Shown: positions 297-49,457, counted from the stretch's first letter. The stretch is 56,381 nucleotides of DNA from Eubacteriales bacterium (GCA_045633025.1 JAZQXS010000159.1:1-56381), one strand, 5' to 3'. Program-made: numbers and translations. The notes: generated by a model not told the origin, from the sequence alone.

Positions 297-485
297 TCAC
301 TTCACCAGATCGTCCATAGTCTTTCCGAGAACTCTGGAAAGCTCCATCAACACGGGAACCGACGGGACCTTGACTCCCGTCTCAAAATAGTGGAGTGCCA
401 CTTGCGTTACTCCAACAGATTCGGCAACCTTCTGCTGAGACCAATTTTTCTCTTCTCTTGCCTTTTTCAAATTTTCCGAAAGCAA
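297..485 (-). CDS. XRE-family HTH regulator, Cro-like (62 aa)
   Basis: TTG start preceded by GGAGG at 8 nt. HTH motif WSQQKVAESVGVTQVALHYFETG. The gene is divergent from the S24 repressor. Confidence 0.8.
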   Translation of the reverse strand: MLSENLKKAREEKNWSQQKVAESVGVTQVALHYFETGVKVPSVPVLMELSRVLGKTMDDLVK

Positions 486-524
486 AATTTTTACCTCCTT
501 TTTTTACTTTTATAACCAAACTTA

Positions 525-553
525 TTGACAAAGTGTATTTTTTAGAGTATAAT
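525..553 (+). promoter_or_regulatory. Consensus sigma70-type promoter pointing at the tandem RNA elements
   Basis: TTGACA at 525-530, a 17-bp spacer, then TATAAT at 548-553. Confidence 0.6.
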
Positions 554-654
554 GAAAGCGCCAACCAACAAAATACTAACTAAAATTACTTTTATCGGTG
601 TATTTGGTTTATATAATCAATCCGACAATGCGGAAGGACTATCATTGTTTATAT

Positions 655-1000
655 TTCACAACTGAAAATTGCCCCGTAAGACGGGAGAAAGGAGGTATCT
701 GCCCATGGAGGCAATACTGAAACTCACCCGCGTGTCTTGTTGTCAACGTATCGAAGCGAAAGCATTTCCGAGCGTTGGCTTCACCGTGTAGGCTACGGGC
801 AACCCGCGGTCGCGGTAAAACGGAATCAAAACCGTTAAAGCTACACGATTCATACACTTGTAACCCCAAATTGCAGGAGGCGTGGAGACACAACATTACC
901 CACTCCGTGTGAAAGACGCAAAAATTTGGCGTTCTCGGTTCCTCGTTTGGGGCTTGGAGCCGAGAATGGTTACACCTGCGAGGCAATTTTCAGTTGTGAA
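655..1000 (+). ncRNA. Structured RNA candidate, unit 1 (about 346 nt, family unknown; strand tentative)
   Basis: A perfect 19-bp closing helix pairs 655-673 with 982-1000. Internal helices include 786-791/841-846. Blocks are shared with unit 2. There is no conserved ORF. Confidence 0.55.
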
Positions 1001-1005
1001 GGTCA

Positions 1006-1029
1006 TAACCTCGATTGTGATACCATTAT
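1006..1029 (+). repeat. 24-nt direct repeat TAACC[T/A]CGATTGTGATACCATTAT, copy 1, immediately 3' of RNA unit 1
   Basis: 23/24 identical to 1382-1405. Confidence 0.85.
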
Positions 1030-1038
1030 TTTGTTACA

Positions 1039-1383
1039 TATCATTCATCGCAAAGCCCAACGAGGCACGAAAGGAGGAATCTCCGTTGGAGAAATTTTTT
1101 CTTTCGCCTGCGCATTTGATGGTCGTCGGCAGCGTAATTGCGTTTGAACCCCGACGGCTGTCCGATACGGGCTACGGGCGAGTGCTTATTTAACACAACA
1201 AACAACAAGCACTTGGGCTGAACCACAACAGTCGAAGCCGTATCACCCCCTACACTCCAGCCCCAAATGGTGAGATCGAAAGACTTTTTTTCAGTATGGG
1301 GAAATGCACAAATTTGGCATTTTGCAGAGACCTTTGGGGAGGTCGATGCAAGATGTCCTCGTCGGGCTTTGCGATGAATGATA
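1039..1383 (+). ncRNA. Structured RNA candidate, unit 2 (about 345 nt, homologous to unit 1)
   Basis: A perfect 20-bp closing helix pairs 1039-1058 with 1364-1383. Helix 1164-1170/1238-1244 covaries with unit 1. Shared blocks are GAAAGGAGGWATCT, GGCTACGGGC, CCCCAAAT, GAAAGAC, AAATTTGGC and TTTGGGG. Confidence 0.55.
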
Positions 1384-1405
1384 ACCACGATTGTGATACC
1401 ATTAT
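1382..1405 (+). repeat. 24-nt direct repeat, copy 2, overlapping the last 2 nt of RNA unit 2 (ends 1383) and continuing 3' of it
   Basis: 23/24 identical to 1006-1029. Confidence 0.85.
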
Positions 1406-1516
1406 AACTCACTAAACGCACTTTGTCAACATAAAAACTCACTTTATTGCACTTTTGTATGATTGCACAAAAACAACTTGGTGAGTTTAGTGATTTTATG
1501 TAAAGGAGAAATAAAA

Positions 1517-2170
1517 ATGTTTTGGTCAAAACTTGTATCTCTATGCAATCAAAAAGGAACAAGCCCAACCGCTGTATGCGTTGAGCTTGGATTTTCAAAC
1601 GCGCTTGCAGTAAAGTGGAAGCGTGGTTCCGTACCGAGAGACACCACGATCCAAAAGATTGCCGACTATTTCGAAGTCCCTGTTTCCTATTTCTCGGAGT
1701 CGGACGTTTCCACCGCCGCCTCCGTTGCCATCCGCATGGCGCGTGATCCTGCGTTTGCCGCATCGGTTCAGAATCGAGGCGTGCGCGTTCCTGTTTATGG
1801 AAACGTGGCGGCAGGCATACCGATCGAGGCGATCACCGACATCGAGGACTATGAGGAGATATCGCAGGAGATGGCGGCAAAAGGAGAATATGCAGCTCTG
1901 CGCATCCACGGAGATAGCATGGAGCCAAAAATGTCCGACGGAGACGTGGTGATCGTCCGCTTGCAGGAAACCGTGGAGAGTGGTGAGACCGCAATCGTGA
2001 TGGTCAACGGTAGCGACGCGACCTGCAAGAAGATCATGCGCACCGACGAAGGCATCATGCTGATTGCCACCAATCCCAAATACGCCCCCATGTTCTACTC
2101 CAACAAGCAGATCGAGGATCTTCCCGTCCGCATATGGGGTAAAGTCGTGGAGTTGAGAGCGAAGTTTTAA
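1517..2170 (+). CDS. LexA/CI-type phage repressor (N-terminal XRE HTH plus C-terminal S24 peptidase)
   Basis: AGGAGA RBS 7 nt before the ATG at 1517. Catalytic Ser motif GDSMEP and Lys motif CKKI. HTH SPTAVCVELGFSNALAVKWKRG. Confidence 0.85.
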   Translation: MFWSKLVSLCNQKGTSPTAVCVELGFSNALAVKWKRGSVPRDTTIQKIADYFEVPVSYFSESDVSTAASVAIRMARDPAFAASVQNRGVRVPVYGNVAAGIPIEAITDIEDYEEISQEMAAKGEYAALRIHGDSMEPKMSDGDVVIVRLQETVESGETAIVMVNGSDATCKKIMRTDEGIMLIATNPKYAPMFYSNKQIEDLPVRIWGKVVELRAKF

Positions 2171-2189
2171 CAAGTCTGGTTATATTTTA

Positions 2190-2296
2190 TCACAAGAACT
2201 TGTGAATTTCAATATATTTTCACAACTTCTTATGAATTTGTAACTTTGAACAAATTTGGGAGAATTATTTTATGATAAATTCACAAGAACTTGCGA
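2190..2296 (+). promoter_or_regulatory. Three operator-like 16-bp sites
   Basis: TCACAAGAACTTGTGA (2190-2205, palindromic), TCACAACTTCTTATGA (2220-2235) and TCACAAGAACTTGCGA (2281-2296). They lie upstream of and across the start of the 2272 HTH gene. Confidence 0.45.
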
Positions 2297-2505
2297 ACAA
2301 AATAAAAAGTCTATTAAAATCAAAAAAAATAACAGTCGGAAAAATGCTTTCCGACTGCGGATTGAGTATCAACACATTGGCATCTATGCAATCGGGTGGA
2401 TATTACCCACGCATAGAAGCAATTTGCAAAATAGCCGACTACTTGGATTGCTCCGTAGATTATCTGCTCGGCAGGACGGAGAATCCGAATAGTCATAAAA
2501 AATGA
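2272..2505 (+). CDS. XRE-family HTH regulator (77 aa)
   Basis: HTH VGKMLSDCGLSINTLASMQSG and the typical C-terminal CSVDYLLGRTE. Confidence 0.8.
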   Translation: MINSQELANKIKSLLKSKKITVGKMLSDCGLSINTLASMQSGGYYPRIEAICKIADYLDCSVDYLLGRTENPNSHKK

Positions 2506-2523
2506 GAAAGGATAGATGATGAA

Positions 2524-4059
2524 ATGAGCCCCCCAAAAACGACATTCTTCTTCATAAAATTCGGTTATTCACTAATTTTTTATGCTTCTTTTTTAGTCTC
2601 TACCATATTCCTTGTTCTCTTTTTCGCCAATGGAGCTTTCATCAATGGGCTTGTCTGGGCAGTTATTATTTTTACAGTTTGCCTTTACTTGTTATTATTT
2701 GAAACCATACAATACAAAAAAGTATTAAAAAAACAAGATTTTGATTCTCTACAGAAGCTAAATGATAGCAACACTATTATGTCCGCCGTAAACATGGTGA
2801 TGGCTTTCTTTGGAATCCCTATCATCTGTAGCACGATCCTTTCTGTTAGTTTCGATGTCTCTTACCATGCTATACCATCTTACAATTTGGTATGGTTGCG
2901 CATTGTACCATATGTAAATATAATTGCGTATTCGGTAACGCTGATCACCTTTTCCCTCATTCACTTGATTTTTTTCTCCTCTCTGTATCGTCAGGAGCAG
3001 ATAAAGAAGAAAGCTACTGAAGAACTAATACTTCAAGAATTGAAGAAAAGATTTGAAAGCAAAAAAGATGATCTATCAAAACTAACGGAAAAATATTATA
3101 ATGCGGTCTGTAAGTATAACGAGAGCCTACCATATCCACCTTTTTTGATTTTTTCAGACTCCGATCTGTCGCCCGTCATACTCTCTTCTCATTACTGGGA
3201 TAATGCAAACGAATTATTAAAATGTTATATGGTTGAAGATGGATTTTGTAAAAAAGAAATTAAAACCTTGACAGAAGACATGCAAACAGTAATCGATGAC
3301 ACTATAGTTTTTGTCTCCGAACTTAAGAACCGCATTTCTCCCGAATGGAATGACAGCGAATCCATATCTTCTGCGATTTATTTTATTATCCGAAACAATA
3401 TCATTCGATACTATTGGGATACTCTAAAAGGAGATGGCATTGAAACAATAGAACAGTTGGTCCTACATCTTTGTAATGAAGAAACCGATAATACGTTCCG
3501 CGTACCTAAAGCTTTTTATACCTATTTTTGGATATACGAAACGGATATTAACTTGCCATTAAAAGAAACTTACAATCGTTTTTCAAATGAAATTGACGAA
3601 TATTACAAGGAATATAAAGTAAACTCAAAACGCGAATCGTTTTTTGACAATTACACAACAAATGCTAATTTCGCCGATCAAATTCCACCTATTGATGCTG
3701 AAGCAGATATGATGTTCCAAATCGACATCATGTCGGGGAGGCAGTTTGAAGAATTTATAGCAGATTTCTTCAGAAAACAGGGCTATAAAACAACTTTAAC
3801 CCCATCTTCTGGAGATTATGGAATTGACGTTATCATCGAAAATGATTTCTTGAAAATCGGAATCCAAACAAAATGCTATACCGATAAAGTCCCAAACGCT
3901 GCCGTTCAAGAAGCAGTAACGGGAATAAGGCATTACGGTTTGGATAAGGCAATGGTGATCACAAACAGTTATTTTCAGCCATCTGCGATTCGACTTGCAA
4001 AAGATAACAATGTTATTCTTTGGGATCGAGACAAATTGGAAACCGAGCTTACCAAATAA
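2524..4059 (+). CDS. Membrane-anchored protein with a C-terminal Mrr-like (PD-(D/E)XK) restriction-endonuclease domain
   Basis: Several N-terminal hydrophobic helices (for example FINGLVWAVIIFTVCLYLLLF). The C-terminus reads SGRQFEEFIADFFRKQGY...GDYGIDVII...IGIQTKCY...AMVITNSYF, typical of the Mrr catalytic domain. Confidence 0.7.
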   Translation: MSPPKTTFFFIKFGYSLIFYASFLVSTIFLVLFFANGAFINGLVWAVIIFTVCLYLLLFETIQYKKVLKKQDFDSLQKLNDSNTIMSAVNMVMAFFGIPIICSTILSVSFDVSYHAIPSYNLVWLRIVPYVNIIAYSVTLITFSLIHLIFFSSLYRQEQIKKKATEELILQELKKRFESKKDDLSKLTEKYYNAVCKYNESLPYPPFLIFSDSDLSPVILSSHYWDNANELLKCYMVEDGFCKKEIKTLTEDMQTVIDDTIVFVSELKNRISPEWNDSESISSAIYFIIRNNIIRYYWDTLKGDGIETIEQLVLHLCNEETDNTFRVPKAFYTYFWIYETDINLPLKETYNRFSNEIDEYYKEYKVNSKRESFFDNYTTNANFADQIPPIDAEADMMFQIDIMSGRQFEEFIADFFRKQGYKTTLTPSSGDYGIDVIIENDFLKIGIQTKCYTDKVPNAAVQEAVTGIRHYGLDKAMVITNSYFQPSAIRLAKDNNVILWDRDKLETELTK

Positions 4060-4065
4060 AAAAAT

Positions 4066-4085
4066 CCCTCCCCTTTCGGGGAGGG
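4066..4085 (+). terminator. GC-rich hairpin just after the 2524-4059 stop codon
   Basis: CCCTCCCC-TTTC-GGGGAGGG. The A-run is upstream, and there is no T-run on the plus strand. Confidence 0.45.
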
Positions 4086-4446
4086 CGAACGGAGGAAAAT
4101 AGGCTTTACCACCACCTTTCATTTGGTAAACGTTGAATCTATCGACGATCGTGTACTTTGTAGAAGTATCTGATAGATCAGATCAAGGATCGTGTATTCA
4201 TTGGTCTCTTTCAGCATTTCTCGAATGCCTCTACGTAAAGTGGTCAGGTCGTCGGGTTCCATGTTCGTTGTTTTCTCCTGTTGTTTTTTATTCAGAGGGT
4301 GTTCCCTCTTGTACCTTTATTATACTCCGCAGAAGCGCATTTTGCAATCGGGCAAATATTCATTTGGCACAAATAAATTTACGGCATATATCCGCAAATT
4401 CACTTATTCGCTAAATAAGAAAAACGTAGAAAGTGAGGATTTTTCC

Positions 4447-4827
4447 TTGTACAGAGATCGTTTGGAAGAAATCAGAAAAGAAAAAGGCTTATCTAACCGC
4501 AGGTGGTCTGAAGAAAGCGGCGTTTCGCTTGATACGATCGGACGTATTATTCACCCAGAAAATCCAGACAAGGATTCCCCGAGAGTAAACACCCTTGAAG
4601 ATTTATGCAAGCCGCTTGGCGTAGAACTTTGGGAAATCTTTTATATCGGCGAACACAGCTTTGTTGCGCTCCAAGCTGAACTCCTGGCTTTACGCGAAGA
4701 ACGAGACAAGCTGCTTGCGGAGAACGCCGTGCAAAGCGCAACGATCGATTCCCTAAAGGAAAAAGTGGATTCGCTCAAGGATCAGATCATCGACACCCAC
4801 AACTATTACATGAGGACGAGGAACTAA
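4447..4827 (+). CDS. HTH plus coiled-coil protein upstream of the integrase (possible excision or immunity regulator; start uncertain)
   Basis: In-frame TTG at 4447 after GAGGA. Contains RLEEIRKEKGLSNRRWSEESGVSLDTIGRI and a C-terminal heptad-like LQAELLALREERDKLLAEN. Confidence 0.55.
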   Translation: MYRDRLEEIRKEKGLSNRRWSEESGVSLDTIGRIIHPENPDKDSPRVNTLEDLCKPLGVELWEIFYIGEHSFVALQAELLALREERDKLLAENAVQSATIDSLKEKVDSLKDQIIDTHNYYMRTRN

Positions 4828-4833
4828 AGGAAG

Positions 4834-5961
4834 ATGGAACAATACTACATTTCCTCAACCAAATACAATATTCAAGAGCGCAGTACGAAGCTGAACGGCA
4901 AGGTCTATGACGTTGTGTTCTACCTGCAAACGCTCGATGGCGTGAAAAAGCAGAAGCGGCTATCCGGGTACAAGACCAAGACCGCCGCAAAAGAGGGATA
5001 TACCAGCTTCGTGACAAAGCATTGCACGCTCGCCAAGGTAGCGCCGAAACGAAACGAGGGAGCAACCGAGATTCCGACCGTCGCAGAGATGTTCCCACTC
5101 TACATTCAATCGTGCGCCAACCAAACCAAGGAATCCACCATTTACGACCGCCAAGGGATCTTCAAATCCATCATCCTTCCCATGCTCGGAAGCCTCCGCA
5201 TGACCGAGCTGACAAAGGAACGTCTGTATCAATGGCAAGATCAGCTATGGTCCATGAAAAGTGATCGGACAAAGGATTTCTATAGCTACGAGTACCTTTC
5301 CTCTATCCGAGGACACCTGAGCGCGTTCCTTTCATGGGCCGAGGCGCGCCATAGCTACGCCAATAATCTGAAGCTCGTCAAGAAGCCGAAGCCGCGCGTC
5401 CAAAAGACCGAAATGCAATTCTGGAGCCGCGAGGAGTTCGACCAATTCATAGAGGTGGTCGATGACCCACGTTACAGGATGATGTTCACCATGTCCTTCT
5501 TCACAGGAAGAAGAAAGGGAGAGATCCTTGCGCTCTCCCCCTCCGACATCAAAGCGGATTCCATTCTGTTCAATAAAACCTATTCCCGCAAGACCGTGGA
5601 CAGTTCCCCATACAAGATCACAACGTCGAAAAACGAAAAGATCGGATACACCCCCATCTGCCCCGCGCTGCGGAACGCCCTTGCCGGGTATGAGGGAGAA
5701 GCCCCGTTCTTTTTCGGCGGAGAAAACCCCATCCATGAAAATACCCTCACCCACGCCTTTGAAGCCTATATCAAAAAGGCGGGAGTCAAACGCATCCGCT
5801 ACCACGACCTGCGCCATTCCTTTGTATCTATCCTGCTGCACCACAACGCAAACTATATGGTCGTCGCAGATCTCATTGGAGACACCGTGGATCAAGTCAT
5901 AAAGACCTACGGACACCTCTACGAAACCGATAAAATAAAGGTTGTCGAGAGCATAATTTGA
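4834..5961 (+). CDS. int: Tyrosine integrase
   Basis: Catalytic signature GRRKGEILAL...RYHDLRHSF...TYGHLY. Confidence 0.9.
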   Translation: MEQYYISSTKYNIQERSTKLNGKVYDVVFYLQTLDGVKKQKRLSGYKTKTAAKEGYTSFVTKHCTLAKVAPKRNEGATEIPTVAEMFPLYIQSCANQTKESTIYDRQGIFKSIILPMLGSLRMTELTKERLYQWQDQLWSMKSDRTKDFYSYEYLSSIRGHLSAFLSWAEARHSYANNLKLVKKPKPRVQKTEMQFWSREEFDQFIEVVDDPRYRMMFTMSFFTGRRKGEILALSPSDIKADSILFNKTYSRKTVDSSPYKITTSKNEKIGYTPICPALRNALAGYEGEAPFFFGGENPIHENTLTHAFEAYIKKAGVKRIRYHDLRHSFVSILLHHNANYMVVADLIGDTVDQVIKTYGHLYETDKIKVVESII

Positions 5962-6083
5962 AGCGAAATATTACACAAATATTACATCAACTCAAAAAAC
6001 GCAATATATTGTGCCATATATCGAGGCGCAAACACTATATTTTGCGTTCAAAATACTCTCCCTGTTTCCACCAAACATTAAAA

Positions 6084-6138
6084 AACGGCTATTTTTGTTG
6101 CATTTTGCACAAATAAAATAGCCGTTCGCTTTGTTTTT
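6084..6138. terminator. Hairpin between the convergent int and cysteine desulfurase genes
   Basis: AACGGCTATTT...AAATAGCCGTT followed by CGCTTTGTTTTT, with an A-run upstream. Confidence 0.5.
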
Positions 6139-6194
6139 ATGTTCATTTAGACGATTGTAGAAAATATAAAACGCTTGTAATATTACTAAATTTA

Positions 6195-7331
6195 TTACAT
6201 CGCCTCTCGAATCACTTTAACACAATCAGCAAACGCATCTATCGCTCTATCGATCTCCCATTCCGTCGTGCATCTCGAAAGAGAGATTCTAACCGCGCTC
6301 AACGCTCTTTCATCCGACATTCCCATCGCCCGCAGTACACCGCTTGGCATTGTTGAGCCACTACAGCACGCAGATCCCGTGGAGCAGTATACCCCGTAAA
6401 GATGCGACAGCATCGAGACGAGACCATCCCCTTTGATGCCCTCCAGCGAGACATTCAGGATATGAGGAACCGATCCGTCTATGGCTCCGTTGAGAAGGAC
6501 GCCCCCCACCTTGTTCTCAAGACCAGCGAGCATCTGACCGCGCAGGATGCGGATCCTGTAATCGTCGTGCGCTTCCGAGAGAGCCACCGCCATTCCAATG
6601 ATCCCAGCTACGTTCTCCGTCCCAGCTCGCCTGTTGTTCTCCTGTGCTCCACCCACCAAGAGCGCGTGATAGCGCGTCAGGAGCGTTGGAAGCATCAAGC
6701 AACCGACTCCCTTGGGTCCATGAAATTTATGCGCGGAGAACGCTATGCTTGCCTCCTTCAGCTCGACACCCAGCGATATATGACCGACCGCCTGCGTAGC
6801 GTCGCAGTGATACGAGATCCCTTTCTCCTCGCAGATCTGTGCAACCTCTCGGAAAGGCTGTATCATACCCGTCTCGTTGTTGACTGCCATGAGGCAAACC
6901 ATACAAGTATCGCCCCGAATCTCACGCGCCACAGATTCGACGTCTACTACGCCATTCCGATCGGGATAGACTACCGACAGGGAAAATCCCCTCTCCTTCT
7001 TCAATCGTCTGCAACACTCCAATACAGACGGATGCTCAATGGCGGACACAACGATATGACGCCGACCCATCCGTTCTCCCTCCAATGCATAGTGCAAGAT
7101 CGCCGCATTATTCGCCTCGGTCGCCCCCGACGTAAACACCAATCTCGCAGGATCCACGCCCAGGCACTTGCCTACCATGCCCCGCGCCTTCTCAATCTCG
7201 CCCCGCGCCGCAATCCCCATGCCATGCCCCGAGGAAGCATTCCCGTAGCTTTCTCGCATGATCTCTACCATAGCCGCCATCGCCTTGTCGCTTACCCGCG
7301 TCGTCGCCGCATTGTCCATGTATATCCCCAT
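6195..7331 (-). CDS. nifS: Cysteine desulfurase (class V aminotransferase, NifS/IscS type)
   Basis: YMDNAATT N-terminus, PLP-lysine motif SAHKFHGPKGVG and active-site loop STGSACCSGS. GGAGG lies 6 nt before the ATG. Confidence 0.85.
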   Translation of the reverse strand: MGIYMDNAATTRVSDKAMAAMVEIMRESYGNASSGHGMGIAARGEIEKARGMVGKCLGVDPARLVFTSGATEANNAAILHYALEGERMGRRHIVVSAIEHPSVLECCRRLKKERGFSLSVVYPDRNGVVDVESVAREIRGDTCMVCLMAVNNETGMIQPFREVAQICEEKGISYHCDATQAVGHISLGVELKEASIAFSAHKFHGPKGVGCLMLPTLLTRYHALLVGGAQENNRRAGTENVAGIIGMAVALSEAHDDYRIRILRGQMLAGLENKVGGVLLNGAIDGSVPHILNVSLEGIKGDGLVSMLSHLYGVYCSTGSACCSGSTMPSGVLRAMGMSDERALSAVRISLSRCTTEWEIDRAIDAFADCVKVIREAM

Positions 7332-7613
7332 GATAAACCTCCTAACCCATTATCGTAAAAGTTAAGCCCCTTCCGTAATCGGAGGGGGCTTTTTGTTTCG
7401 CTGCAATCAAGCAGCTCGGAGGGCTACGACGGAACGGGGGTAACGACCATCTGCGCTCCTATTGGCTTGTGACTAAAAACCACTCGATCGTGGGCTGAAA
7501 CCTTGCAAGCCTGACCGTTCATTTGGTCGGTTCTCTTTCCTCGCCCGTCGGAAGAAACAGGCTCCGCGCAGACGGAAGAAGCAGAACCTCCTGCGCTCGC
7601 CTATATTATACCA
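7332..7613 (-). promoter_or_regulatory. Leader of the cysteine desulfurase gene: an extended -10 promoter, about 230 nt of structured RNA, then a terminator-like hairpin
   Basis: On the minus strand, TGGTATAAT at 7613-7605 and hairpin GCCCCCTCC...GGAAGGGGC at 7389-7366, followed by TTAACTTTT and then the RBS. Confidence 0.4.
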
Positions 7614-8491
7614 CTTCCGCGCCCCTTTGTCTACACCTGTTCCAAAATTATTTCTTATCCCGCCGTTTTCACCGCCCAAAGCACGCTCCACCACGCGCAT
7701 CCAAGCCCTTTCCATACATATTTCCAACCCCTCTCATCATGATCCTTAAACACCAATAAATCTATACAAAATACCGCAACCAGCATCGAGAACGCTTTAG
7801 GTGGGGGAAGTGCTACGGCAGGGCTTCCACTTTCGCGCCGCCTTTCGACTTGAAAAGCACCCCGCCCGCCTTTTCTGTTGCTATAATTATATATTATATA
7901 AACAAACGCAAACGGGGACGGCACACCCGGATCGTATCTTTTCCGGTTGATCCCGTCGGCTTCCGTCCCGGTGCGGGCTTCCGCGTTCGCGCGTGTTGTG
8001 AATGATATTCAATCTATATATAAGAACAAGACGCGCAGAGGATGAGACCATATTATAAATACCATAGCTAAAATATAAATAAGAATATAATATATATAAA
8101 TATATAATATATAAGGGCGTTTATTGAATATATAAAGTGGTCAAGCGATTGCATTATATAATAATATAAATGTGTATAGAGGGGGGCGCATGGGCGTAGC
8201 CGTCGATGGGTAGGCGGGGCGTGCCAGGCTTTCGGCTTCGCGCGGCGTTTTTGTTTTGTTGTTATAATTAACAAAATTTGCGGATTTTGAAAAATAATAT
8301 AGCGTCAGCAGAGGCGCGCAGGGGGCGCGTGGGCGCGTTTTGTGGCGTTTGTTTTCATTGCGGATGCGTTCGGGGCTTGTAGGGCGTTTTTTGGGCTTCT
8401 GCGAGGGTTATAATTCCAAAGTATTTAGCAACTTGCACAAATGCGCATGCTTAAAAACGGGCTGTTTTTGTGTAGGTTGCAAAAGTCGTTA

Positions 8492-8520
8492 TTGACTTTT
8501 AGGCGGTTTTGTGGTATAAT
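8492..8520 (+). promoter_or_regulatory. Consensus promoter for the plus-strand island
   Basis: TTGACT at 8492-8497, a 17-bp spacer ending in TG, then TATAAT at 8515-8520. Confidence 0.65.
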
Positions 8521-8545
8521 ATAAGAGAAGAAAGGAGGCGAGACC

Positions 8546-8695
8546 ATGAAGCAGGCGGAGATATTCCGACTGATTGGAGATGATGCCGAGATGATGAGCG
8601 ATTCAACCTTGCAAAAGTTGATTGAGTATCTGAAAAGCGTTAAAGGCTGGACGGATTCCGAAGTCGTGGCGCTGCTTGAACACATCACGAAATAA
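8546..8695 (+). CDS. Hypothetical small protein (49 aa, MKQAEIFRLIGDDAEMMSDSTLQKLIEYLKSVKGWTDSEVVALLEHITK)
   Basis: AAAGGAGG RBS before the ATG and a consensus promoter 25 nt upstream. It is too short to appear in the ORF track. Confidence 0.5.
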   Translation: MKQAEIFRLIGDDAEMMSDSTLQKLIEYLKSVKGWTDSEVVALLEHITK

Positions 8696-8934
8696 AAAAG
8701 GGCTTTCGGTCTAACTTCCTACGGCTAACCGAAAACCCAAAAACGAGAACTAAAGCAAATCAAAAGCAGGGGCGAAAAATCCGCCTGCCGTCCTTGCTTG
8801 CTTTGGCTCGTGATTATTGTACCACAAACGGCGGAAAAAGTCAAGAGAAAATCAAAAAAATATTTTCCTGAACAGATCAGGAGCAGAACAGCGCAAGACC
8901 GCACCAACACGGGCGGCAGCTGGGGAGGTTTATA

Positions 8935-9138
8935 ATGAGCTTTGAACAGACGAAAATTTTTGCGGACCTTGTAAACAATTTTACAAGAATTGCGAACGAA
9001 CACCGGCACGACGTCGGACGGGATCAGATGGCAGCGGATATGGTCGCGCGATGGTCGCGTATACACGGCTCGGATCGGATCGAAAAAGTCGCGCGCAAGG
9101 CTAACCAAAAAGCGAAAGTAAAATTTTATTCTGTTTGA
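8935..9138 (+). CDS. Hypothetical protein (67 aa)
   Basis: GGGGAGG RBS before the ATG. Same strand as its neighbours. Confidence 0.5.
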   Translation: MSFEQTKIFADLVNNFTRIANEHRHDVGRDQMAADMVARWSRIHGSDRIEKVARKANQKAKVKFYSV

Positions 9139-9288
9139 GTTTGGAGGTCTTGAAAATGACTATCAAAAAGTCGTCCCGGCGACTATAAAAAGCAGATCAA
9201 GCCGGGAGCGTTCCCGCCGATCATGGCGGGAGGTTCTGGAACGGTAAGACCGTAAACGCGAAAAGCGGCGGCGCGTTCGGGGGTATCT

Positions 9289-10935
9289 ATGGAATACACA
9301 TTGACGAAAAATGCGGACTTTGGATCTTTGGAAATCACTTTTGACGGCAAGCCCGCTCAGTCGATCCGTGACGCGCTGAAGGCGTTGCGCTTCAGATGGC
9401 ACGGCGTGCGCCGCGTTTGGTACGGATACGCGGACGAACAGACGACCCGCGCAGCTCTTGACGGTTCGACCGTCGGTTGGACCGTTCCGGCGGCAAACGT
9501 TCAGAACAACGACCAGGCAGAACAGCCCGCGCGCGTTTCTTCCCTTCCGTCGATCCGGTTCTATTACAACGGGATCAAGGTCAACGGCGGCGAGCTGATC
9601 AAGTGCCATTATAGCGCGGATGCCGGCAGCGTGACCATCTACGCGCAGAGATACGGCGCAGACCTTCCGCGCGCATTGTTCGACGTGCGGAATGATACCG
9701 ACTTCATGACGGACTACTTCGACAAGGACAGCGCAACGATTCCGGCAGATCATCCCCTTTTCCGCTTTGCGTTCTATATGGCAAAGAAAGAGGAATACAA
9801 GCAGCACGCGCGCACGCTGGAACGTCAGAAGAAAAACCCGCGTTTATATTCCTACTTGACAGCAGAGCAGCGCGCCGCAAAAATGCGCGAGTTTGAACAG
9901 CTCACCGATCCCGGACAACCTACAAACGCGGACCTTCTGAAGATCGAGGACATGAACGCGTCACGCGAGAAAGCACGCAAAGAGGCAGAGGAAGCCGCCG
10001 AGCGCGAGCGCGTCGCAACCTTTGAACGGAAGAAGGCAAGCGGAGTGCAGACCATCCGCGAGGGCTTGGAGCGTTTCCCGCTGGACGAGAACGGCGGCGA
10101 CTTTGTTATGATCGAATGGTCAGAGCATCCCGCATTTTATGAGCACGAGGAGCGCGGCGGGCTGAAGCTCTCCATCATGGCGGCGGATTGGATCATGCGC
10201 GAGCTGGACGAGGAGCAGAACAGAACCCGCGAGACCGAGGACGGGCGCGGCTGGTACGATAAAACGAGCTTTAGGATCTACAAGGGCGGCGAGTGCGTTT
10301 ATAGTGGACGCTATGACCTGGGCGACAATGATGGCGGCTTGATCGCGCACATCAGCGCAAACGCGGCAAACCGTGACCTTGACGAGGACGAGCGAGCCGT
10401 TATCGAGTGGATCAGAGCGCAAGCGGGGATCACTTCCCCGATCCCCGTTCCCGTACACGTTGCGACCATTGCGGAACAGATCACCGCGGCGGACTTGCAG
10501 AGCGGAGAAGATTTTACAATGCTCTATCTTGATCCGTGGATCATGACGGCGACCACCACGGCGGCAACGGTGAACAGCGCGAGCGCGTGCGAGTACGCAC
10601 AGCACAAGGACGCCGCGCGGATCGAGTACACGCCGAAAGGAAAACGGAAGGCGCGAACGATCCACATCAGCGGGCGCGATGCGTGCGTGATATGGCGCGG
10701 CATTCTTCCCGACGTTCCGAACAGTATCAAATACACCGATTGCGGCAGCTCGTCCATGCTCCAGCGCGTCAATTATGCGGGAGAAAATGCGCTGGACTAT
10801 ATGCGGCGCGCGGTAGAATATTATCGCTCTATCGGCTTTGTGCCGGTGTTTGATACGGTATCAGAGCCGGAACAGCCCGAACCCGTGGAAAGTCTGGACG
10901 ATTCCAGTGTGGAATATATCGCATATTATTCATAA
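9289..10935 (+). CDS. Large hypothetical protein. Its N-terminal module resembles domains of large polyvalent proteins from conjugative elements and phages.
   Basis: 548-aa ORF. The N-terminus GSLEITFDGKPAQSIRDALKALRFRWHGVRRVWYGY is recognised by pattern only. Confidence 0.65.
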   Translation: MEYTLTKNADFGSLEITFDGKPAQSIRDALKALRFRWHGVRRVWYGYADEQTTRAALDGSTVGWTVPAANVQNNDQAEQPARVSSLPSIRFYYNGIKVNGGELIKCHYSADAGSVTIYAQRYGADLPRALFDVRNDTDFMTDYFDKDSATIPADHPLFRFAFYMAKKEEYKQHARTLERQKKNPRLYSYLTAEQRAAKMREFEQLTDPGQPTNADLLKIEDMNASREKARKEAEEAAERERVATFERKKASGVQTIREGLERFPLDENGGDFVMIEWSEHPAFYEHEERGGLKLSIMAADWIMRELDEEQNRTRETEDGRGWYDKTSFRIYKGGECVYSGRYDLGDNDGGLIAHISANAANRDLDEDERAVIEWIRAQAGITSPIPVPVHVATIAEQITAADLQSGEDFTMLYLDPWIMTATTTAATVNSASACEYAQHKDAARIEYTPKGKRKARTIHISGRDACVIWRGILPDVPNSIKYTDCGSSSMLQRVNYAGENALDYMRRAVEYYRSIGFVPVFDTVSEPEQPEPVESLDDSSVEYIAYYS

Positions 10936-11005
10936 GCGCAGAACAGACAAAGAGCCGGTAAGCCCTGAACCGCCAGCAATGGCGTCAGGCGCGGCGGGGG
11001 ATATT

Positions 11006-11230
11006 ATGGAACAGATCAAAATCAGGGTTTTGCAAAAAGTCAATTGGTGCGTTGCCGATCTTCTTAATAAATGGGTCAAGGAAAACGGCGGGATTTTTGC
11101 ACGGGATCATTTTTTCGGTGCGCATATAATCAAGGGCGGCGTTAGACATTACCCCGTTGACGGTGTAAAGGTAGAAAGGCACGACGACGGGACCGAAACA
11201 GTCACGGTTTACCTTGTGGTGAGAGATTGA
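11006..11230 (+). CDS. Hypothetical protein (74 aa)
   Basis: Internal ATG after a G-rich RBS. MEQIKIRVLQKVNWCVADLL... Confidence 0.5.
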   Translation: MEQIKIRVLQKVNWCVADLLNKWVKENGGIFARDHFFGAHIIKGGVRHYPVDGVKVERHDDGTETVTVYLVVRD

Positions 11231-11315
11231 CCGAACAGCCGAGGCGGGCGGCATATCCCGCCAAAATAAGCCCATAAGCCGCCACCGATACGGGGCGCGG
11301 GGCGGAGGTCAGAAC

Positions 11316-11489
11316 ATGAAAAAATACATTTGTAGGCTTTTAGTGCTTCCCTGCTTGGTCGTTAGCCTTTTGGCGGTCGTGATCGTAACGGGAGCGATCG
11401 AGAACGGCGGCGCGTTGTCTTTGTGCTGGATCGCATTTGCGGCGATCGGCGCGACGTGGGTGATCATCAGAACAGCCGCCAAGGGCTGA
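11316..11489 (+). CDS. Small membrane protein (57 aa)
   Basis: GGAGG RBS. Hand translation gives MKKYICRLLVLPCLVVSLLAVVIVTGAIENGGALSLCWIAFAAIGATWVIIRTAAKG, with two hydrophobic helices. Preferred over the antisense 11309-11521 ORF. Confidence 0.45.
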   Translation: MKKYICRLLVLPCLVVSLLAVVIVTGAIENGGALSLCWIAFAAIGATWVIIRTAAKG

Positions 11490-11524
11490 AACGTCAGAAC
11501 AGACCGATGGGAGTAGATCACGGC

Positions 11525-11992
11525 ATGAACATTTTTCTACCCTACCCCGAAAGCGCGGCGCGATCTGCGGCGGCTCTAGATGATCGGCGGCTTGTCAAGC
11601 AGATTTTGGAATGCAAGATCCTGCTTGACATTGCCACGCAGAACAGAACAGACGGCTATGCGCGTCACCCCGTCGCCGTACACTACCGAGGACAGACCGA
11701 TTTCCTGCGTTTCTACGGCTTGGAGTGTTGCCGCGAGTATTTGCACCGCTTTAACCGTCCGCACGCCTACGCGCCTTATTTCGCGGCTCTCCGTGCGGGC
11801 GAAAAGCAGCCCGATTATATCCCGTTTTACGCCGAGGGCAGCAGAACAGACCCGAAAAGCATCAGAACCACCGAGAACGTCGGCGATCTATTCCGCGCGA
11901 AGCTCTGCCGCAAGTGGCAGACCGACAGAACAGAACCCCGTTGGACGAACAGAACAGCACCCGAATTTTACAGAACAGCTCGTAAGTCCTGA
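11525..11992 (+). CDS. Pyrimidine-dimer DNA glycosylase / endonuclease V (DenV)-like protein
   Basis: MNIFLPY...LDDRRLVKQILECKILL and DYIPFYAEGS resemble T4 endonuclease V (LADQHLMAEYRE and DYIPHEAS). Similarity judged by eye. Confidence 0.5.
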   Translation: MNIFLPYPESAARSAAALDDRRLVKQILECKILLDIATQNRTDGYARHPVAVHYRGQTDFLRFYGLECCREYLHRFNRPHAYAPYFAALRAGEKQPDYIPFYAEGSRTDPKSIRTTENVGDLFRAKLCRKWQTDRTEPRWTNRTAPEFYRTARKS

Positions 11993-12023
11993 CCTACGGG
12001 CAGGCAGAGAAAAGGAGAACAGC

Positions 12024-12968
12024 ATGACACACGCAGAATACAAAAAGGCGGTCGGGCAGTATCTTTCTGCCCTTCCCTCACTCAATAAAAGCGAACGGAC
12101 ACAGGCGGCATATAAAGCCGTTTTAAGCGCATTTGATGCCTTTTCGGGAAAACACCTTGCCGAGGGCGAGAACGGCTCACAGATAGGCAAATTGGCTGTC
12201 GTGGCGTGGCGTTCCGCGCTTGCGGAGCAGAACAGCAACAACACGGTGCATCACCGACTCGTCTGCCTACACGCTTTTTTCGTTTGGGCGTGCCGCATGG
12301 GGCTTTGCAATGAAAACCCCGTGGACGTTGAGGATATACCCGATTTACAAGAGGTCGAATATGATCTTTTGACCTACGACGAGATCAAGACTATTTTGGT
12401 CGAAACGCCGAAAAAAGGCGTTCACGAAAAAAACACTTGCAGAAACCGCGCGATTGTGTTATTATTATGTACGACGGGACTGCGGAACAGTGAGCTTCGG
12501 CATCTGCGCTTGTCTGACCTTGACTTTGAGAACGGTACGATCTCCGTCCGACACGGCAAAGGAGACAAAAGCAGGACGGTCGCATTCCCTGCCCGCGCGA
12601 GAACGGCGGTGCAGGAATATCTTGCAAGCGGTGCGCGACCTGATTCGGTTGGTCCTGATGGTCTTTTGTTTGGGACAGGCGCGGACGAGAACGGGCACGG
12701 CAGAACAGCCGAGTGGCACGCGATCACGTCGCAGGGCTTGCTTGGCATTGTGAACCGTTACACAGAGAAGTGCTGCGGTCACGCGGTTAGCGTCCACGCG
12801 CTCCGTCACGCGGCGGCATCGCTTTGGGATCACCTCAACATTACGCCGAGCGAGATGCAACAGGCTCTCGGGCATTCGAGCATTACCACCACAATGGGGA
12901 TCTATCGGCACGTTTTGAAATCAGACAAGGCGGCAAAGAGCATCAATGCCGCTCTTGATTCAATGTAA
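12024..12968 (+). CDS. Second tyrosine recombinase (XerC/D-like)
   Basis: AAGGAG RBS. Catalytic motifs TGLRNSEL...VHALRHAAAS...MGIYRHV. Confidence 0.85.
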   Translation: MTHAEYKKAVGQYLSALPSLNKSERTQAAYKAVLSAFDAFSGKHLAEGENGSQIGKLAVVAWRSALAEQNSNNTVHHRLVCLHAFFVWACRMGLCNENPVDVEDIPDLQEVEYDLLTYDEIKTILVETPKKGVHEKNTCRNRAIVLLLCTTGLRNSELRHLRLSDLDFENGTISVRHGKGDKSRTVAFPARARTAVQEYLASGARPDSVGPDGLLFGTGADENGHGRTAEWHAITSQGLLGIVNRYTEKCCGHAVSVHALRHAAASLWDHLNITPSEMQQALGHSSITTTMGIYRHVLKSDKAAKSINAALDSM

Positions 12969-12996
12969 TTGCAGAACAGAAAGGAACAGAACAGAC

Positions 12997-13410
12997 ATGG
13001 AAGAAGCAAAGAAGGAAATCATCATCAGAACAGGAGACAAGGTAATCACAGCGGACGGTCGCGTCGGTCGCGTGACCTCGGTCTGCGACTGCGAAAAATG
13101 TGCAAAACGCGGATTTTTTGAACCCACATATGAGATCAAAGGAGATCCCGATGAGCATTATATCATGATCGGTCAGTATCAAGCGGGATTCCCCGACTTC
13201 TACCTGATCGGCAAGAATTTCTTTGGCAATAAGATCAGCACCGAGGAGATGGCACGAAGGATCGCAGAACAGCGCGAGGTCGTGGAAAGAGAAAAGGAAA
13301 AGCTCGATGCACTCCGAAAACAGTGGTGGACGCTGAATGAGCGCATGATTCCCGATTGGAAAGAGCGCGAGGAAGCACGACGCAAGAAGAACGCAGAACA
13401 GAACACATAA
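12997..13410 (+). CDS. Hypothetical protein (137 aa, CxxC motif, charged C-terminus)
   Basis: ATG at 12997 after AAAGGAAC. ORF on the same strand as its neighbours. Confidence 0.6.
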   Translation: MEEAKKEIIIRTGDKVITADGRVGRVTSVCDCEKCAKRGFFEPTYEIKGDPDEHYIMIGQYQAGFPDFYLIGKNFFGNKISTEEMARRIAEQREVVEREKEKLDALRKQWWTLNERMIPDWKEREEARRKKNAEQNT

Positions 13411-13411
13411 C

Positions 13412-13439
13412 AAAAAGCCCCCGATTCGGGGGCTTTTCT
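13412..13439. terminator. Bidirectional intrinsic terminator between convergent operons
   Basis: AAAAAGCCCCCGATTCGGGGGCTTTTCTT. Confidence 0.7.
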
Positions 13440-13440
13440 T

Positions 13441-15096
13441 TTAGATGATGCAGAACACGGGGACGATACCGTTTGCACCGACGCCTTGGGTAGACGTAAG
13501 ATTTCCGTCCGTATAAACCACTCGCGCAGACGAAGCATTGTTTGTGTTGGCAGATCGCATTCGCCACGTGCGCGCGTTTCCGTTATAGCGTTTGATTCTA
13601 TCGGTTGCAGTCGTGTTTCCTTGCCAGTAGGTGAAAAATTGACCTTCTTGAACGCCGTTATTCAGTACGCCAGCCAACTCTGTATAGGAGATTAAAAACA
13701 CCTTGTCCTCGGTCGTATCGTACAGGGTATCGTCTACAATATCACACGTAGGTATCGCGCTCTTGAGAACGACCGTCCCGATAGAATTGACAAAAGATTT
13801 GTCCTTCCCGTAAAGGAATCCTGCTATATTGGAATTTACGGGCCAGGTATCAAAAACGGTTGCGGGCTTCCACCAGTTTGAGTATCCCGGTGACGCGGGC
13901 GCGGCATCCGAATTGAGCCATTGGCGAATCGCGGAGTCGCGCCATCTGTTTGTTCCGTAAGCGCATCTCTGTGTAAAATTATGCTTCCCGTCGTCTGTAA
14001 AATACTGTCTTTCGAACGATGTAAATACGCCAAGATCGGTAGATTGGGTGGTTCCGTCCCAAATAGTGACCGCGATGCCGGATGCTATAGCGTTTTTGTC
14101 AGCTCTGTAAATGGACACCCTACCATCTGTAATCTGCGAGGTATTATAAGACGGAGATTGAATGACCCCTACCGAATTGTGACGAATGCCGCCCCCCGCC
14201 GGAATGGGAATGGTCGTGGTGAACATATAGGTGGCATCCTGTCCCGTCGAGCCGTCGTAGGCACCGTGGTTCAAGGTAAAGCGGTAATTCCCAGCCGGGA
14301 GCTCGACGTCTGTATAATAAAGGAGCTGAGTACCCGAATAAGGGATGGTGCCGTAATACGGAACCTCGGAAGCCCCGCACACAAGGCAGTTTGACAGATT
14401 GACATTTTTCGGTGTCTCCTGATTGAAGCCGAGCACGTCATAGGAATCCGTCGTGGAGACCATCGTAATGGTCAAGGTGTCACCTACGGAAGGCATTCCC
14501 CCCGAAAGCGTGACACCGAGAAGGGATAGGCTGACCGCTTCCCCGTCCTCTCTGACCCATCCGTTTCCGCTATACGTAAATACATAAGTTCCCGCGATGG
14601 AGCCGTCGAGATAGGAGACGAACGCAAGCGCATCAAGAGACGCGGACAAAGAGGAATTGGAGGAGGTTATGGTGCAGGAATCCCCGTCAACCGTTTCAAG
14701 GGAAAGCTGCTGACCGACGGCGTAGTCCATCGGAGCCGTTCCGAATCGCACCGAGCGTTGAACCGCGTACCAAGACGCGTCATCAAGCGTGGATTGCTCA
14801 AAGTCCTGCGTCTCCCAAACAATCGCGTTTCGGAAGGAATTGTAAATGGTTGCCACCCAAACGGATTGTCCTTTTTTCATGTACGCCGCCTTGGAGGAAT
14901 ACGGAAGCGTCAGAACGGTACGGTCGGAAATAAGGCGCACGTCGCACACGTTCCCCTTCTCCGCGCTTGAATATGGCGGATTGACCACGACCCCCTTATA
15001 TACCCGAAAGCAATCCTTCGTTTGCTTACGGATAGTGTCGGCGGCTATCGTCTCGATGACCTTTCGGATCTGTTGGGTTAATGCAAGCGAACTCAT
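13441..15096 (-). CDS. Tail fibre / receptor-binding protein candidate. Its C-terminal domain resembles the DGR target scaffold.
   Basis: Last gene of the tail module. C-terminus TWRMRSANTNNASSARVVYTDGNLTSTQGVGANGIVPVFCII. Confidence 0.55.
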   Translation of the reverse strand: MSSLALTQQIRKVIETIAADTIRKQTKDCFRVYKGVVVNPPYSSAEKGNVCDVRLISDRTVLTLPYSSKAAYMKKGQSVWVATIYNSFRNAIVWETQDFEQSTLDDASWYAVQRSVRFGTAPMDYAVGQQLSLETVDGDSCTITSSNSSLSASLDALAFVSYLDGSIAGTYVFTYSGNGWVREDGEAVSLSLLGVTLSGGMPSVGDTLTITMVSTTDSYDVLGFNQETPKNVNLSNCLVCGASEVPYYGTIPYSGTQLLYYTDVELPAGNYRFTLNHGAYDGSTGQDATYMFTTTIPIPAGGGIRHNSVGVIQSPSYNTSQITDGRVSIYRADKNAIASGIAVTIWDGTTQSTDLGVFTSFERQYFTDDGKHNFTQRCAYGTNRWRDSAIRQWLNSDAAPASPGYSNWWKPATVFDTWPVNSNIAGFLYGKDKSFVNSIGTVVLKSAIPTCDIVDDTLYDTTEDKVFLISYTELAGVLNNGVQEGQFFTYWQGNTTATDRIKRYNGNARTWRMRSANTNNASSARVVYTDGNLTSTQGVGANGIVPVFCII

Positions 15097-48331: not shown

Positions 48332-48438
48332 GCAGTACAGTCCTTTTTGTTTATCTTTTTCCAAAGAAAGGTTGCGTGTTCTTTCGATGTGGTGCGCTGA
48401 TTTCGGATGTTTCCTACTCTGTCTGGCTTTCCACCGAT

Positions 48439-48505
48439 ACGGGCGAACCCCCATGTTGTCGTTGTTGTAGTTGTCGTTGTTGATGTTGCCGCGCGGGGAA
48501 ACGCA
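48439..48505 (-). repeat. DGR template repeat (TR, 67 nt)
   Basis: Minus strand reads TGCGTTTCCCCGCGCGGC-AACATCAACAACGACAACTACAACAACGACAACATG-GGGGTTCGCCCGT. It is adenine-rich, and both flanks are identical to the VRs. Confidence 0.9.
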
Positions 48506-48535
48506 AAAAAATACAACTCGCAACCTATTTGCTAT

Positions 48536-48904: not shown

Positions 48905-48906
48905 TT

Positions 48907-49434: not shown

Positions 49435-49457
49435 TTTGCTTCTCCTTTTTAGTTTTT

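Follow-up and report, generated by a model that had tools for sequence, protein, structure and literature searches.

Several described systems rely on short nucleic acid words that are oriented, repeated or both. Chi sites are 5-8 nucleotides (nt) long, strictly oriented, sharply specific and recognized on one strand, and extra copies raise the chance of recognition; they occur throughout the host chromosome, roughly once every several kb, and follow the direction of replication. The polar oligomers known as FtsK-orienting polar sequences (KOPS) and SpoIIIE recognition sequences (SRS) occur alongside the Xer-type tyrosine recombinases of the XerCD-dif system, are chromosome-wide, and form two arms that converge on dif. 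The 12-nt ops element, which works with RfaH/LoaP-type NusG paralogues, lies once or a few times in the leader of a horizontally acquired operon, on the sense (non-template) strand; it is read during transcription and keeps a long operon expressed. Other words are found on RNA. CsrB/RsmY-type sponge RNAs and multi-site protein-binding mRNAs carry many copies of a short motif that tends to be unpaired, and the GGAG sites of T4 RegB are common to early mRNAs. Iterons and partition-site arrays pack their repeats into a few hundred bp of non-coding DNA close to an origin or a par locus. Here we describe a hexamer, GAACAG, that recurs on one strand of an accessory operon within a 56,381-nt stretch of DNA from a Eubacteriales bacterium (GCA_045633025.1, JAZQXS010000159.1:1-56381; hereafter the window).

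GAACAG tags a family of phage accessory operons, which we refer to as islands, in a strand-specific manner; the hexamer is conserved and strongly selected. The searchable literature held no description of the feature and nothing relevant on the sequence, on LPD25, on the gene associations of pistol ribozymes or on Clostridial Chi.

Strand-specific enrichment of GAACAG in one operon

An earlier note on this DNA had counted 19 plus-strand copies of the octamer CAGAACAG between 8884 and 13401. All 19 start positions are exact matches and the minus strand of that interval has none; the three one-mismatch copies that the note listed (11231, 11310 and 12015) and its three examples of different reading frames (9518, 10216 and 12701) are also correct. 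Its estimate by eye that only two reverse-complement octamers lie elsewhere agrees with an exact count, in which the remaining ~51 kb contains CAGAACAG solely as two minus-strand matches, at 15569 and 29034. The whole window therefore has 21 copies, compared with 1.53 ± 1.26 (largest 6) in dinucleotide-preserving shuffles, and the island has 19 where a second-order Markov model of the island alone predicts 0.36 (z = 31).

Although the enrichment of the octamer is real, the selected unit is the hexamer GAACAG, because the CA prefix is limited to the lineage of the window; CAGAACAG is a local, lineage-specific form. Between 8400 and 13440 the hexamer occurs 33 times on the plus strand and never on the minus strand, with 3.8 copies expected under the same kind of model (z = 15). 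The field is confined to a single transcription unit running from a promoter at 8492 to a terminator at 13437, the one long plus-strand operon of the phage, which spans ~5 kb and encodes eight predicted proteins. The intergenic region upstream of the promoter has no GAACAG, and the last copy of the field (13396) is followed on the plus strand by one at 15837. Across the remaining 43 kb of phage genes the hexamer is not enriched on either strand: for the late genes, 18 copies occur on the sense strand (12.5 expected) and 3 on the antisense strand (4.7 expected). Where the motif occurs in islands, its density is one copy per 150-250 nt, with an irregular spacing of 5-1500 nt over fields of 4.5-11 kb that lie mostly within genes.

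Some copies overlap as GAACAGAACAG, with a spacing of 5 nt (11641/11646, 11947/11952 and 12984/12989 in the window). About 12 such overlaps occur across the window and the related loci L001, L123, L125 and L127, which exceeds the prediction from the enriched frequency of single copies; slippage or selection for tandem words may have produced them. A second octamer, GAGAACGG, is found six times on the plus strand (10087, 11400, 12168, 12528, 12599 and 12687) and not on the minus strand. Five of its six copies encode Glu-Asn-Gly, the copy at 12599 is CAGAACAG in the L001 homologue, and some copies may represent decayed or variant versions of the main motif.

Selection on nucleotides rather than protein

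Within the genes of the window, GAACAG is distributed over the three reading frames almost evenly (9, 8 and 7 copies in frames 0, 1 and 2), and nine further copies are intergenic. To preserve the protein sequences and the codon usage of each island, codons were swapped only among positions with the same amino acid. The 24 coding copies of the window compare with 6.7 ± 2.1 after such shuffling (maximum 13), the 41 of L127 with 11.5 ± 2.7 (maximum 20), the 17 of L125 with 5.2 ± 1.9 (maximum 13) and the 31 of L123 with 9.5 ± 2.4 (maximum 19). L127 illustrates the strength of the effect: this AT-rich island prefers CAA (89) to CAG (35) as its Gln codon, 25 of its 34 Glu-Gln pairs are spelled GAACAG, and 25 of its 35 CAG codons come after GAA. 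Moreover, the dipeptides able to carry the word, Glu-Gln and Arg-Thr, are two to three times over-represented, and the signal has therefore shaped the proteins themselves.

Selection acts on the nucleic acid rather than on the protein, as the earlier note had proposed; the shuffles in four islands, the use of three frames, the intergenic copies and the Glu-Gln/Arg-Thr distortion all bear this out. Codon or dipeptide bias, the objection that the note had raised against itself, is ruled out by the shuffles together with the Markov models. A longer dispersed repeat was also considered and is ruled out, since position-specific information is gone beyond ±2 nt.

The specificity is sharp. When eight islands are pooled, GAACAG occurs 284 times on the sense strand against 21 expected (13.5-fold) and five times on the other strand, whereas all 18 of its single-base variants fall between 0.2- and 2.1-fold and hexamers of the same composition are not enriched. 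The flanks hold little information. On the 5' side they differ by lineage (CA in the clade of the window, TT in L125, C in L132-L138), and on the 3' side A or C is favoured in most islands.

Copies are not placed at random with respect to genes. GAACAG starts between -1 and +9 nt after the stop codon in 15 of 54 genes, a 5-fold excess over random placement (2.8 ± 1.6); the excess near start codons is weak (15 vs 9.9), and copies also crowd into C-terminal tails. This placement fits selection for copy number, with copies settling where the cost to the protein is least. A role at gene boundaries is a possible alternative.

Individual sites are conserved above background: the motif hexamers of the window are identical in L001 at 69% of sites, compared with 48% for all hexamers (p = 0.014), and in L123 at 68% compared with 40% (p = 0.002). 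In the sense RNA, GAACAG is predicted to stay free of base pairing more often than other hexamers with an identical composition do (0.24 vs 0.13 in the window), and the predicted excess in accessibility has p values of about 0.001-0.04 in four islands.

The hexamer in related phage islands

The earlier note had treated the motif as a feature of one island and had suggested looking for it in related phages. The enrichment in that island holds, and it belongs to a whole family of phage islands, being present in about 20 loci. Relatives were collected with two proteins of the operon as queries, the LPD25-domain protein g548 and the XerC-like recombinase; about 20 loci or assemblies (L-numbers) were tested, with island GC contents of 36-55%. 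Even the proteins of their core genes are only 42-50% identical among islands. In the islands listed with this recombinase subfamily, GAACAG is the highest-scoring hexamer and has a near-complete strand bias. The ratio of plus- to minus-strand copies is 37:1 over the whole L001 locus (36:1 in its island), 11:2 in the partial island of L122, 39:2 in L123/L124, 24:1 in L125/L126 and 47:0 in L127; L131-L138 have 13-46 plus-strand copies and L330-L337 have 8-43, each with 0-2 on the minus strand. Two loci are exceptions as to rank. In L332 GAACAG comes just below the overlapping AACAGC, and in the 1.3-kb fragment L329 (7:0) the top hexamers are the overlapping CAGAAC and AGAACA.

All motif-positive loci share one subfamily of XerC-like recombinase (at least 45% identity), and the two co-occur in every locus examined. 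Three LPD25 operons without the recombinase (L128-L130) have 0-5 copies of GAACAG and no enrichment, which rules out the motif as a general feature of LPD25 operons. Similarly, 18 loci with recombinases that are at most 40% identical show no GAACAG enrichment, and a general feature of the neighbourhood of tyrosine recombinases is ruled out by them. The locus L339, whose recombinase is 33% identical, carries a related word, with GAACTG at 25:1 (7.9 expected) and GGAACTG at 13:0 (1.8 expected) in 400-11800 on the plus strand. The excess of GAACTG is only 3-fold; it could be the variant word of a sister clade or could reflect Glu-Leu codons on a purine-rich strand, and is a weak lead.

Gene-by-gene comparison of 13 islands found the g548 family and the recombinase in all of them and g137, the last gene of the operon, in 11. 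Sites of GAACAG turn over, and genes found only in L001 carry copies of their own. Islands differ by insertions and deletions of whole genes, and the junctions carry motif-like sequence. Variable cargo includes a Macro-domain protein (L131, 11740-12918, plus strand), a DUF4942 protein (L127, 14864-16594, plus strand) and a small protein with an HExxH motif (L132, 11370-11837, plus strand); such cargo would be in keeping with a module that serves in counter-defence.

Searches of viral contigs that started from the motif (CAGAACAG-N-CAGAACAG or triple GAACAG) returned, among the matches listed, only tandem repeats or composition-driven cases and no independent sample of islands. A BLAST search of a phage database with the island gave a single 53-bp match.

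Genes of the operon and the surrounding phage genome

The features of the operon are collected in Table 1. Its promoter is the best plus-strand match in 7300-13600 and lies 26 nt upstream of the start codon of g49, a protein that has no Pfam family above cut-off and whose 60% identical homologue opens the L127 island. The domain searches gave no family for g67. The pistol ribozyme matches the full-length model with 65.2 bits (gathering score 34.5, E = 1.5e-10). It was the sole significant match in an Rfam scan of 5900-13600, in which no family covered the motif repeats; L001 has a copy of equal score at 1125-1194, and no ribozyme was found by Rfam scan in the islands of L123, L125 and L127. 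LPD25 is a domain of polyvalent proteins; in g548, for which 434 homologues were found, an N-terminal domain of ~60 amino acids (aa) is strongly conserved. The gene for the Pyr_excise-like protein has seven motif copies, five of them in its C-terminal tail. The recombinase is distinct from the integrase of the phage itself. In the AlphaFold2 model of g137 the barrel is of a Tudor/KOW/Sm-like type, and its best Foldseek matches are the N-domain of CdnL/CarD, the Tudor domain of UvrD/PcrA, the KOW domain of Spt5, and Lsm, none of them significant (E >= 0.07). The Tudor-like domains of CdnL/CarD and UvrD/PcrA bind RNA polymerase. None of the island proteins had a match in PADLOC or in sequence searches of the PDB, and Pfam recognized no NGN-domain protein among the eight. 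The terminator ends both the island operon and the convergent operon of tail genes.

Table 1. Features of the island operon and start positions of GAACAG in the window
Feature	Coordinates	Strand	Description
Promoter of the island operon	8492-8520	+	TTGACT, 17-nt spacer, TATAAT, TG extension; 11 of 12 consensus positions
g49, first gene of the operon, 49 aa	8546-8695	+	Open reading frame (ORF) with GAAAGGAGG ribosome-binding site; 0 motif copies
Motif field	8870-13401	+	33 GAACAG copies, 19 with preceding CA (= CAGAACAG)
GAACAG starts, first part	8870, 8886, 8944, 9436, 9520, 9895, 10218, 10474, 10572, 10719, 10870, 10941	+	
GAACAG starts, middle part	11009, 11233, 11470, 11497, 11641, 11646, 11844, 11928, 11947, 11952, 11973	+	
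GAACAG starts, last part	12017, 12230, 12485, 12703, 12974, 12984, 12989, 13028, 13267, 13396	+	
g67, 67 aa	8935-9138	+	ORF
Pistol self-cleaving ribozyme	9169-9238	+	Spacer between g67 and g548; Rfam RF02679; contains no GAACAG
g548, 548 aa, LPD25 domain	9289-10935	+	Pfam PF18840, E = 7.5e-17
g74, 74 aa	11006-11230	+	ORF; motif overlaps the second codon (ATGGAACAG)
g57, 57 aa, hydrophobic	11316-11489	+	ORF
Pyr_excise-like protein (pyrimidine-dimer DNA glycosylase), 155 aa	11525-11992	+	Pfam PF03013, E = 1.2e-12
XerC/XerD-like tyrosine recombinase, 314 aa	12024-12968	+	Pfam PF00589, E = 2.4e-26, plus SAM_1
g137, predicted small beta-barrel followed by a long coiled coil	12997-13410	+	AlphaFold2 model, mean pLDDT 75.5
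Bidirectional intrinsic terminator	13413-13437		Stem of 11-12 pairs, T runs on both strands

Three promoter-like sites share an extended -10 element, TTTGTGGTATAATA: that of the operon, one at 7605-7633 (minus strand) and one at 8816-8844 (minus strand). The last is antisense, inside the spacer between g49 and g67, and together with a minus-strand hairpin and T run near 8697-8745 it could yield an antisense RNA of ~110 nt. Scans for inverted repeats found no invertible promoter or Xer site, only the extended -10 element common to the promoters.

The window is a complete circular phage genome of ~56,240 bp, as indicated by an exact terminal repeat of 141 bp (1-141 = 56241-56381), and the island sits in a temperate phage of gut Clostridia. 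Other genes of this phage encode a lambda-type integrase (4834-5961), RecT, a YqaJ exonuclease, SSB, two DNA methylases and a diversity-generating retroelement (DGR). The structural genes are on the minus strand, and the tail genes meet the island operon head-on.

The DGR (47297-50147, minus strand) comprises a reverse transcriptase (47297-48523), an Avd-like protein (48536-48904), a copy resembling a template repeat (48434-48506) and two resembling variable repeats (48946-49018 and 49490-49556), which lie at the C-termini of the ORFs at 48907-49461 and 49458-50147. Template and variable copies differ almost only at adenines of the template. Between the integrase and the island lies a gene for a NifS-like cysteine desulfurase (6195-7331, minus strand), with a counterpart in L122 (6916-8055). 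The proteins most similar to it (59-93% identity) come from contigs of phage-genome size or smaller, two of them with a g548 homologue, and bacterial NifS proteins are at most 46% identical. The same slot holds tRNA-Thr(UGU) in L123, L125 and L127, tRNA-Met as well in L123 and L127, and additionally tRNA-Gln, tRNA-Pro and a tmRNA gene in L127. No connection to the motif was found for the neighbouring tRNA-Thr(UGU), tRNA-Met and tmRNA genes or for the DGR. Among the structural genes there is a match to the gut-2 RNA family (RF02990; 35609-35656, minus strand; 47.2 bits, gathering score 39.8). Adjoining the integrase, a 511-aa protein (2524-4059, plus strand), the product of what may be a defence gene carried by the prophage, has a C-terminal Mrr-type nuclease domain; in PADLOC its similarity is to ZorD (Zorya), at the nuclease end.

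Possible functions of the motif

Given the asymmetry of the counts (284:5 in the pooled islands, 33:0 in the window), a binder of double-stranded DNA that is indifferent to orientation is excluded, and the motif must be recognized on a single strand or by a polar process on DNA. Our preferred explanation, to which we give a probability of roughly 0.4, is that GAACAG acts in cis as a repeated signal and is read on single-stranded nucleic acid, while the operon is being transcribed or afterwards. We favour a signal tied to transcription because the field is confined to one unit and the rest of the genome is unenriched, because most genes carry copies, and because the copies burden coding DNA despite a 1.2-kb non-coding region upstream (7332-8545). 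The use of sites in genes when non-coding DNA lies so close points to a need in cis rather than to a free decoy. That there are 24-47 copies per operon, each of marginal value, suggests an additive cis effect and not a single loading site. The pistol ribozyme in the same transcript indicates that RNA is processed in the operon, in keeping with a transcript-level signal. The earlier note had listed such a signal among several options; it is the best fit to the distribution, and we put it forward as a proposal.

Reading would occur in the operon mRNA, or on the non-template DNA strand exposed during transcription. We suspect a reader that is specific for the sequence, conserved among these phages and most plausibly encoded by the island, for which the g137-family protein, with its beta-barrel and coiled coil, or the XerC-like recombinase are candidates. 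Judged from its structural model, g137 is a weak candidate and only a lead. The effect would sum with copy number and act in cis on the transcription unit that carries the copies; it could be sustained transcription, stabilization of the mRNA or its timed destruction.

Several observations weigh against this explanation. No reader of the motif was identified among the island proteins, the structural matches of g137 are those of a search without significant hits, and g137 is missing from 2 of the 13 islands compared. The direction of transcription and the orientation in the phage genome are identical in every island, and no island with an inverted gene was found among those compared; a transcript-level signal and a DNA-polarity signal are therefore inseparable by sequence alone. 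Copies are absent from the first ~340 nt of the window transcript, from the opening gene or two of several islands and from several genes of L127 and L125. RNA-binding proteins are usually less base-specific than is seen here. The absence of the complementary hexamer from the transcript accounts for part of the higher predicted accessibility. Finally, the frequent GAACAGAACAG overlaps suit a scanning enzyme better than a stably bound protein. Apparent minus-strand ORFs in L131 proved spurious, as its plus strand is purine-rich and has ORFs with ribosome-binding sites. An RNA that would act in trans through CUGUUC was also rejected: plus-strand copies of CTGTTC lie in late genes or in a promoter, and no candidate small RNA was found.

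A polar signal on DNA for a translocating enzyme is the strongest of the alternatives, and we consider it unlikely. It could be Chi-like, switching AddAB from degradation to repair, or KOPS/SRS-like, steering a pump of the FtsK/SpoIIIE type toward the site of the island's Xer-like recombinase. The single orientation and sharp base specificity are those of Chi and KOPS, overlapping or close copies would increase cumulative recognition by a scanning enzyme, the motif is always found with a recombinase of the XerC/XerD type, and the phage has RecT, YqaJ exonuclease and SSB with no recognized inhibitor of RecBCD/AddAB. However, a copy every 150-250 nt is far denser than Chi or KOPS, which are spaced at about one per several kb, and the field is limited to one transcription unit of 4.5-11 kb and halts at the terminator. 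The other 43 kb are unenriched on both strands, and the converging second arm that is seen around dif is therefore lacking. The two strands of 21 kb from a candidate Clostridiales chromosome, a small sample whose assignment as host is uncertain, have 5 and 6 copies, without skew. Moreover, the hexamer is the same in islands whose GC content ranges from 36% to 55%, whereas Chi differs among genera of Firmicutes, and an island that lies mid-genome relative to the terminase genes would not guard a DNA end. The Chi-like or translocase-orienting signal suggested in the earlier note is thus disfavoured by density, by confinement to one operon and by the unenriched rest of the phage.

The copies might instead be binding or recombination sites of the island's tyrosine recombinase, either accessory sites or crossover sites at gene boundaries for the exchange of cassettes, loosely as in integrons; we find this improbable, more so than a polar signal. 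Recombinase binding had been another suggestion of the earlier note, and co-occurrence is what supports it. The co-occurrence with the subfamily has no exception, and loci with more distant recombinases lack the motif, yet the association is partly built in, as relatives were gathered with the recombinase or its neighbour as query. The 5-fold enrichment in the 10 nt after stop codons, and the whole-gene insertions and deletions at motif-like junctions, fit an exchange of cassettes. Core sites of such enzymes, however, are inverted pairs of arms around a spacer, and none can be built in an island with 0 copies of CTGTTC. Most copies lie in genes, in all frames, where recombination would delete coding sequence, and the flanks are uninformative beyond ±2 nt.

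Very improbable, in our view, is a by-product of host defence directed at an asymmetric 6-bp site (Type III restriction, bacteriophage exclusion (BREX) or Type IIG/L), visible as orientation bias or acting as a decoy. Same-orientation sites escape Type III cleavage, and all copies here are co-oriented, as is the case in phage T7 for the EcoP15I sites. GAACAG, asymmetric and with A at position 5, resembles known sites of BREX and Type IIL systems, and the islands have counter-defence-like genes (LPD25, the DNA glycosylase-like gene, the Macro domain of L131 and a methylase-associated domain in L127). Escape from restriction would nevertheless leave sites avoided or simply co-oriented rather than 13-fold enriched; elsewhere in the phage genome GAACAG is neither avoided nor enriched, and a decoy has no need of placement in coding sequence.

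The absence of any function, with the copies arising from base composition (at 56% A+G, the sense strand is rich in purines), codon or dipeptide bias, low-complexity linkers (some copies encode linkers of the Glu-Gln-Pro type) or diverged repeats (the pentamer-phased GAACAGAACAG overlaps could arise by slippage), is refuted by the synonymous shuffles and the pooled variant test, as Markov models of order 1-2 and the shuffles fall short by 3.3- to 13-fold, same-composition and single-base variants are unenriched, unrelated flanks show that the copies do not belong to a longer repeat, the enrichment recurs in about 20 independent assemblies across the full range of island GC, and the sites are conserved above background.

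If GAACAG is a true recognition signal, mobile elements would have a new means of labelling a gene block of their own, with a word every 150-250 nt on one strand and a selection strong enough to bend codon choice and amino acid sequence. Phage accessory islands of this class could then also be recognized in metagenomes by a simple sequence signature. What binds or cuts GAACAG in these phages may be informative on two wider problems: the timing or insulation of counter-defence gene expression by phages, and the presence of self-cleaving ribozymes in such operons. If the reader were instead the host's AddAB or FtsK/SpoIIIE, the word would define the Chi or KOPS sequence of an uncultured group of gut Clostridia.

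Comparison with known systems

Like Chi, GAACAG is short, oriented, sharply specific and a word whose extra copies would raise the chance of recognition. It differs in being restricted to one operon and unenriched both in the rest of the phage and in the sample of the candidate host. Over-representation along the host chromosome, and usually in its temperate phages, in the direction of replication is the hallmark of Chi and was not seen, the host part of this comparison being weak given the uncertain identity of the host. With KOPS and SRS the hexamer shares its polarity and the company of an Xer-type tyrosine recombinase, whereas its field has only one arm, of the same extent as a transcription unit. 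Past the terminator at 13437 the minus-strand count equals expectation, and no dif-like inverted-repeat Xer site was found at the junction.

The cores of attC and other tyrosine recombinase sites are imperfect inverted repeats on either side of a cassette or crossover region; the island has no reverse-complement copy of the word and no informative flanks beyond ±2 nt. Iterons and partition arrays are compact, in contrast to irregular spacing over 4.5-11 kb, mostly in genes. The orientation bias expected from restriction or BREX would come with avoidance or with a frequency close to chance, and we see a 13.5-fold enrichment.

Sponge RNAs and multi-site mRNAs have, like the operon transcript, many copies of one short motif on one molecule, tending to be unpaired; sponge RNAs, however, are non-coding and present GGA in hairpin loops, whereas GAACAG has no GGA, lies in the coding regions of an mRNA in all frames, and is only moderately more unpaired than controls. 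As with the RegB sites, processing or decay could be coordinated through a short sequence common to the mRNAs of one temporal class. RegB sites double as ribosome-binding sites, a second role that GAACAG does not have, and require no extra selection; no nuclease was identified for GAACAG.

The ops element resembles GAACAG as a sense-strand element of a horizontally acquired operon. It differs in its few leader copies, compared with 24-47 throughout the operon and none in the first ~340 nt, and no protein with the NGN domain of NusG paralogues (NGN plus KOW) was detected in the island. We suspect, tentatively and at somewhat less than even odds, that these islands have an undescribed operon-tagging system, in which a conserved accessory and probably counter-defence module marks its own transcript or non-template strand with dozens of GAACAG copies and a module-encoded reader treats its genes apart. 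Such a system could work by dedicated anti-termination, selective protection of mRNA or timed decay, and the lineage-specific flanks (CA, TT and C) would reflect co-evolution of reader and tag. The feature fits no class that could be tested and in that sense is new in kind, with the reservation that the identity of its reader could place it beside Chi and KOPS or beside ops.

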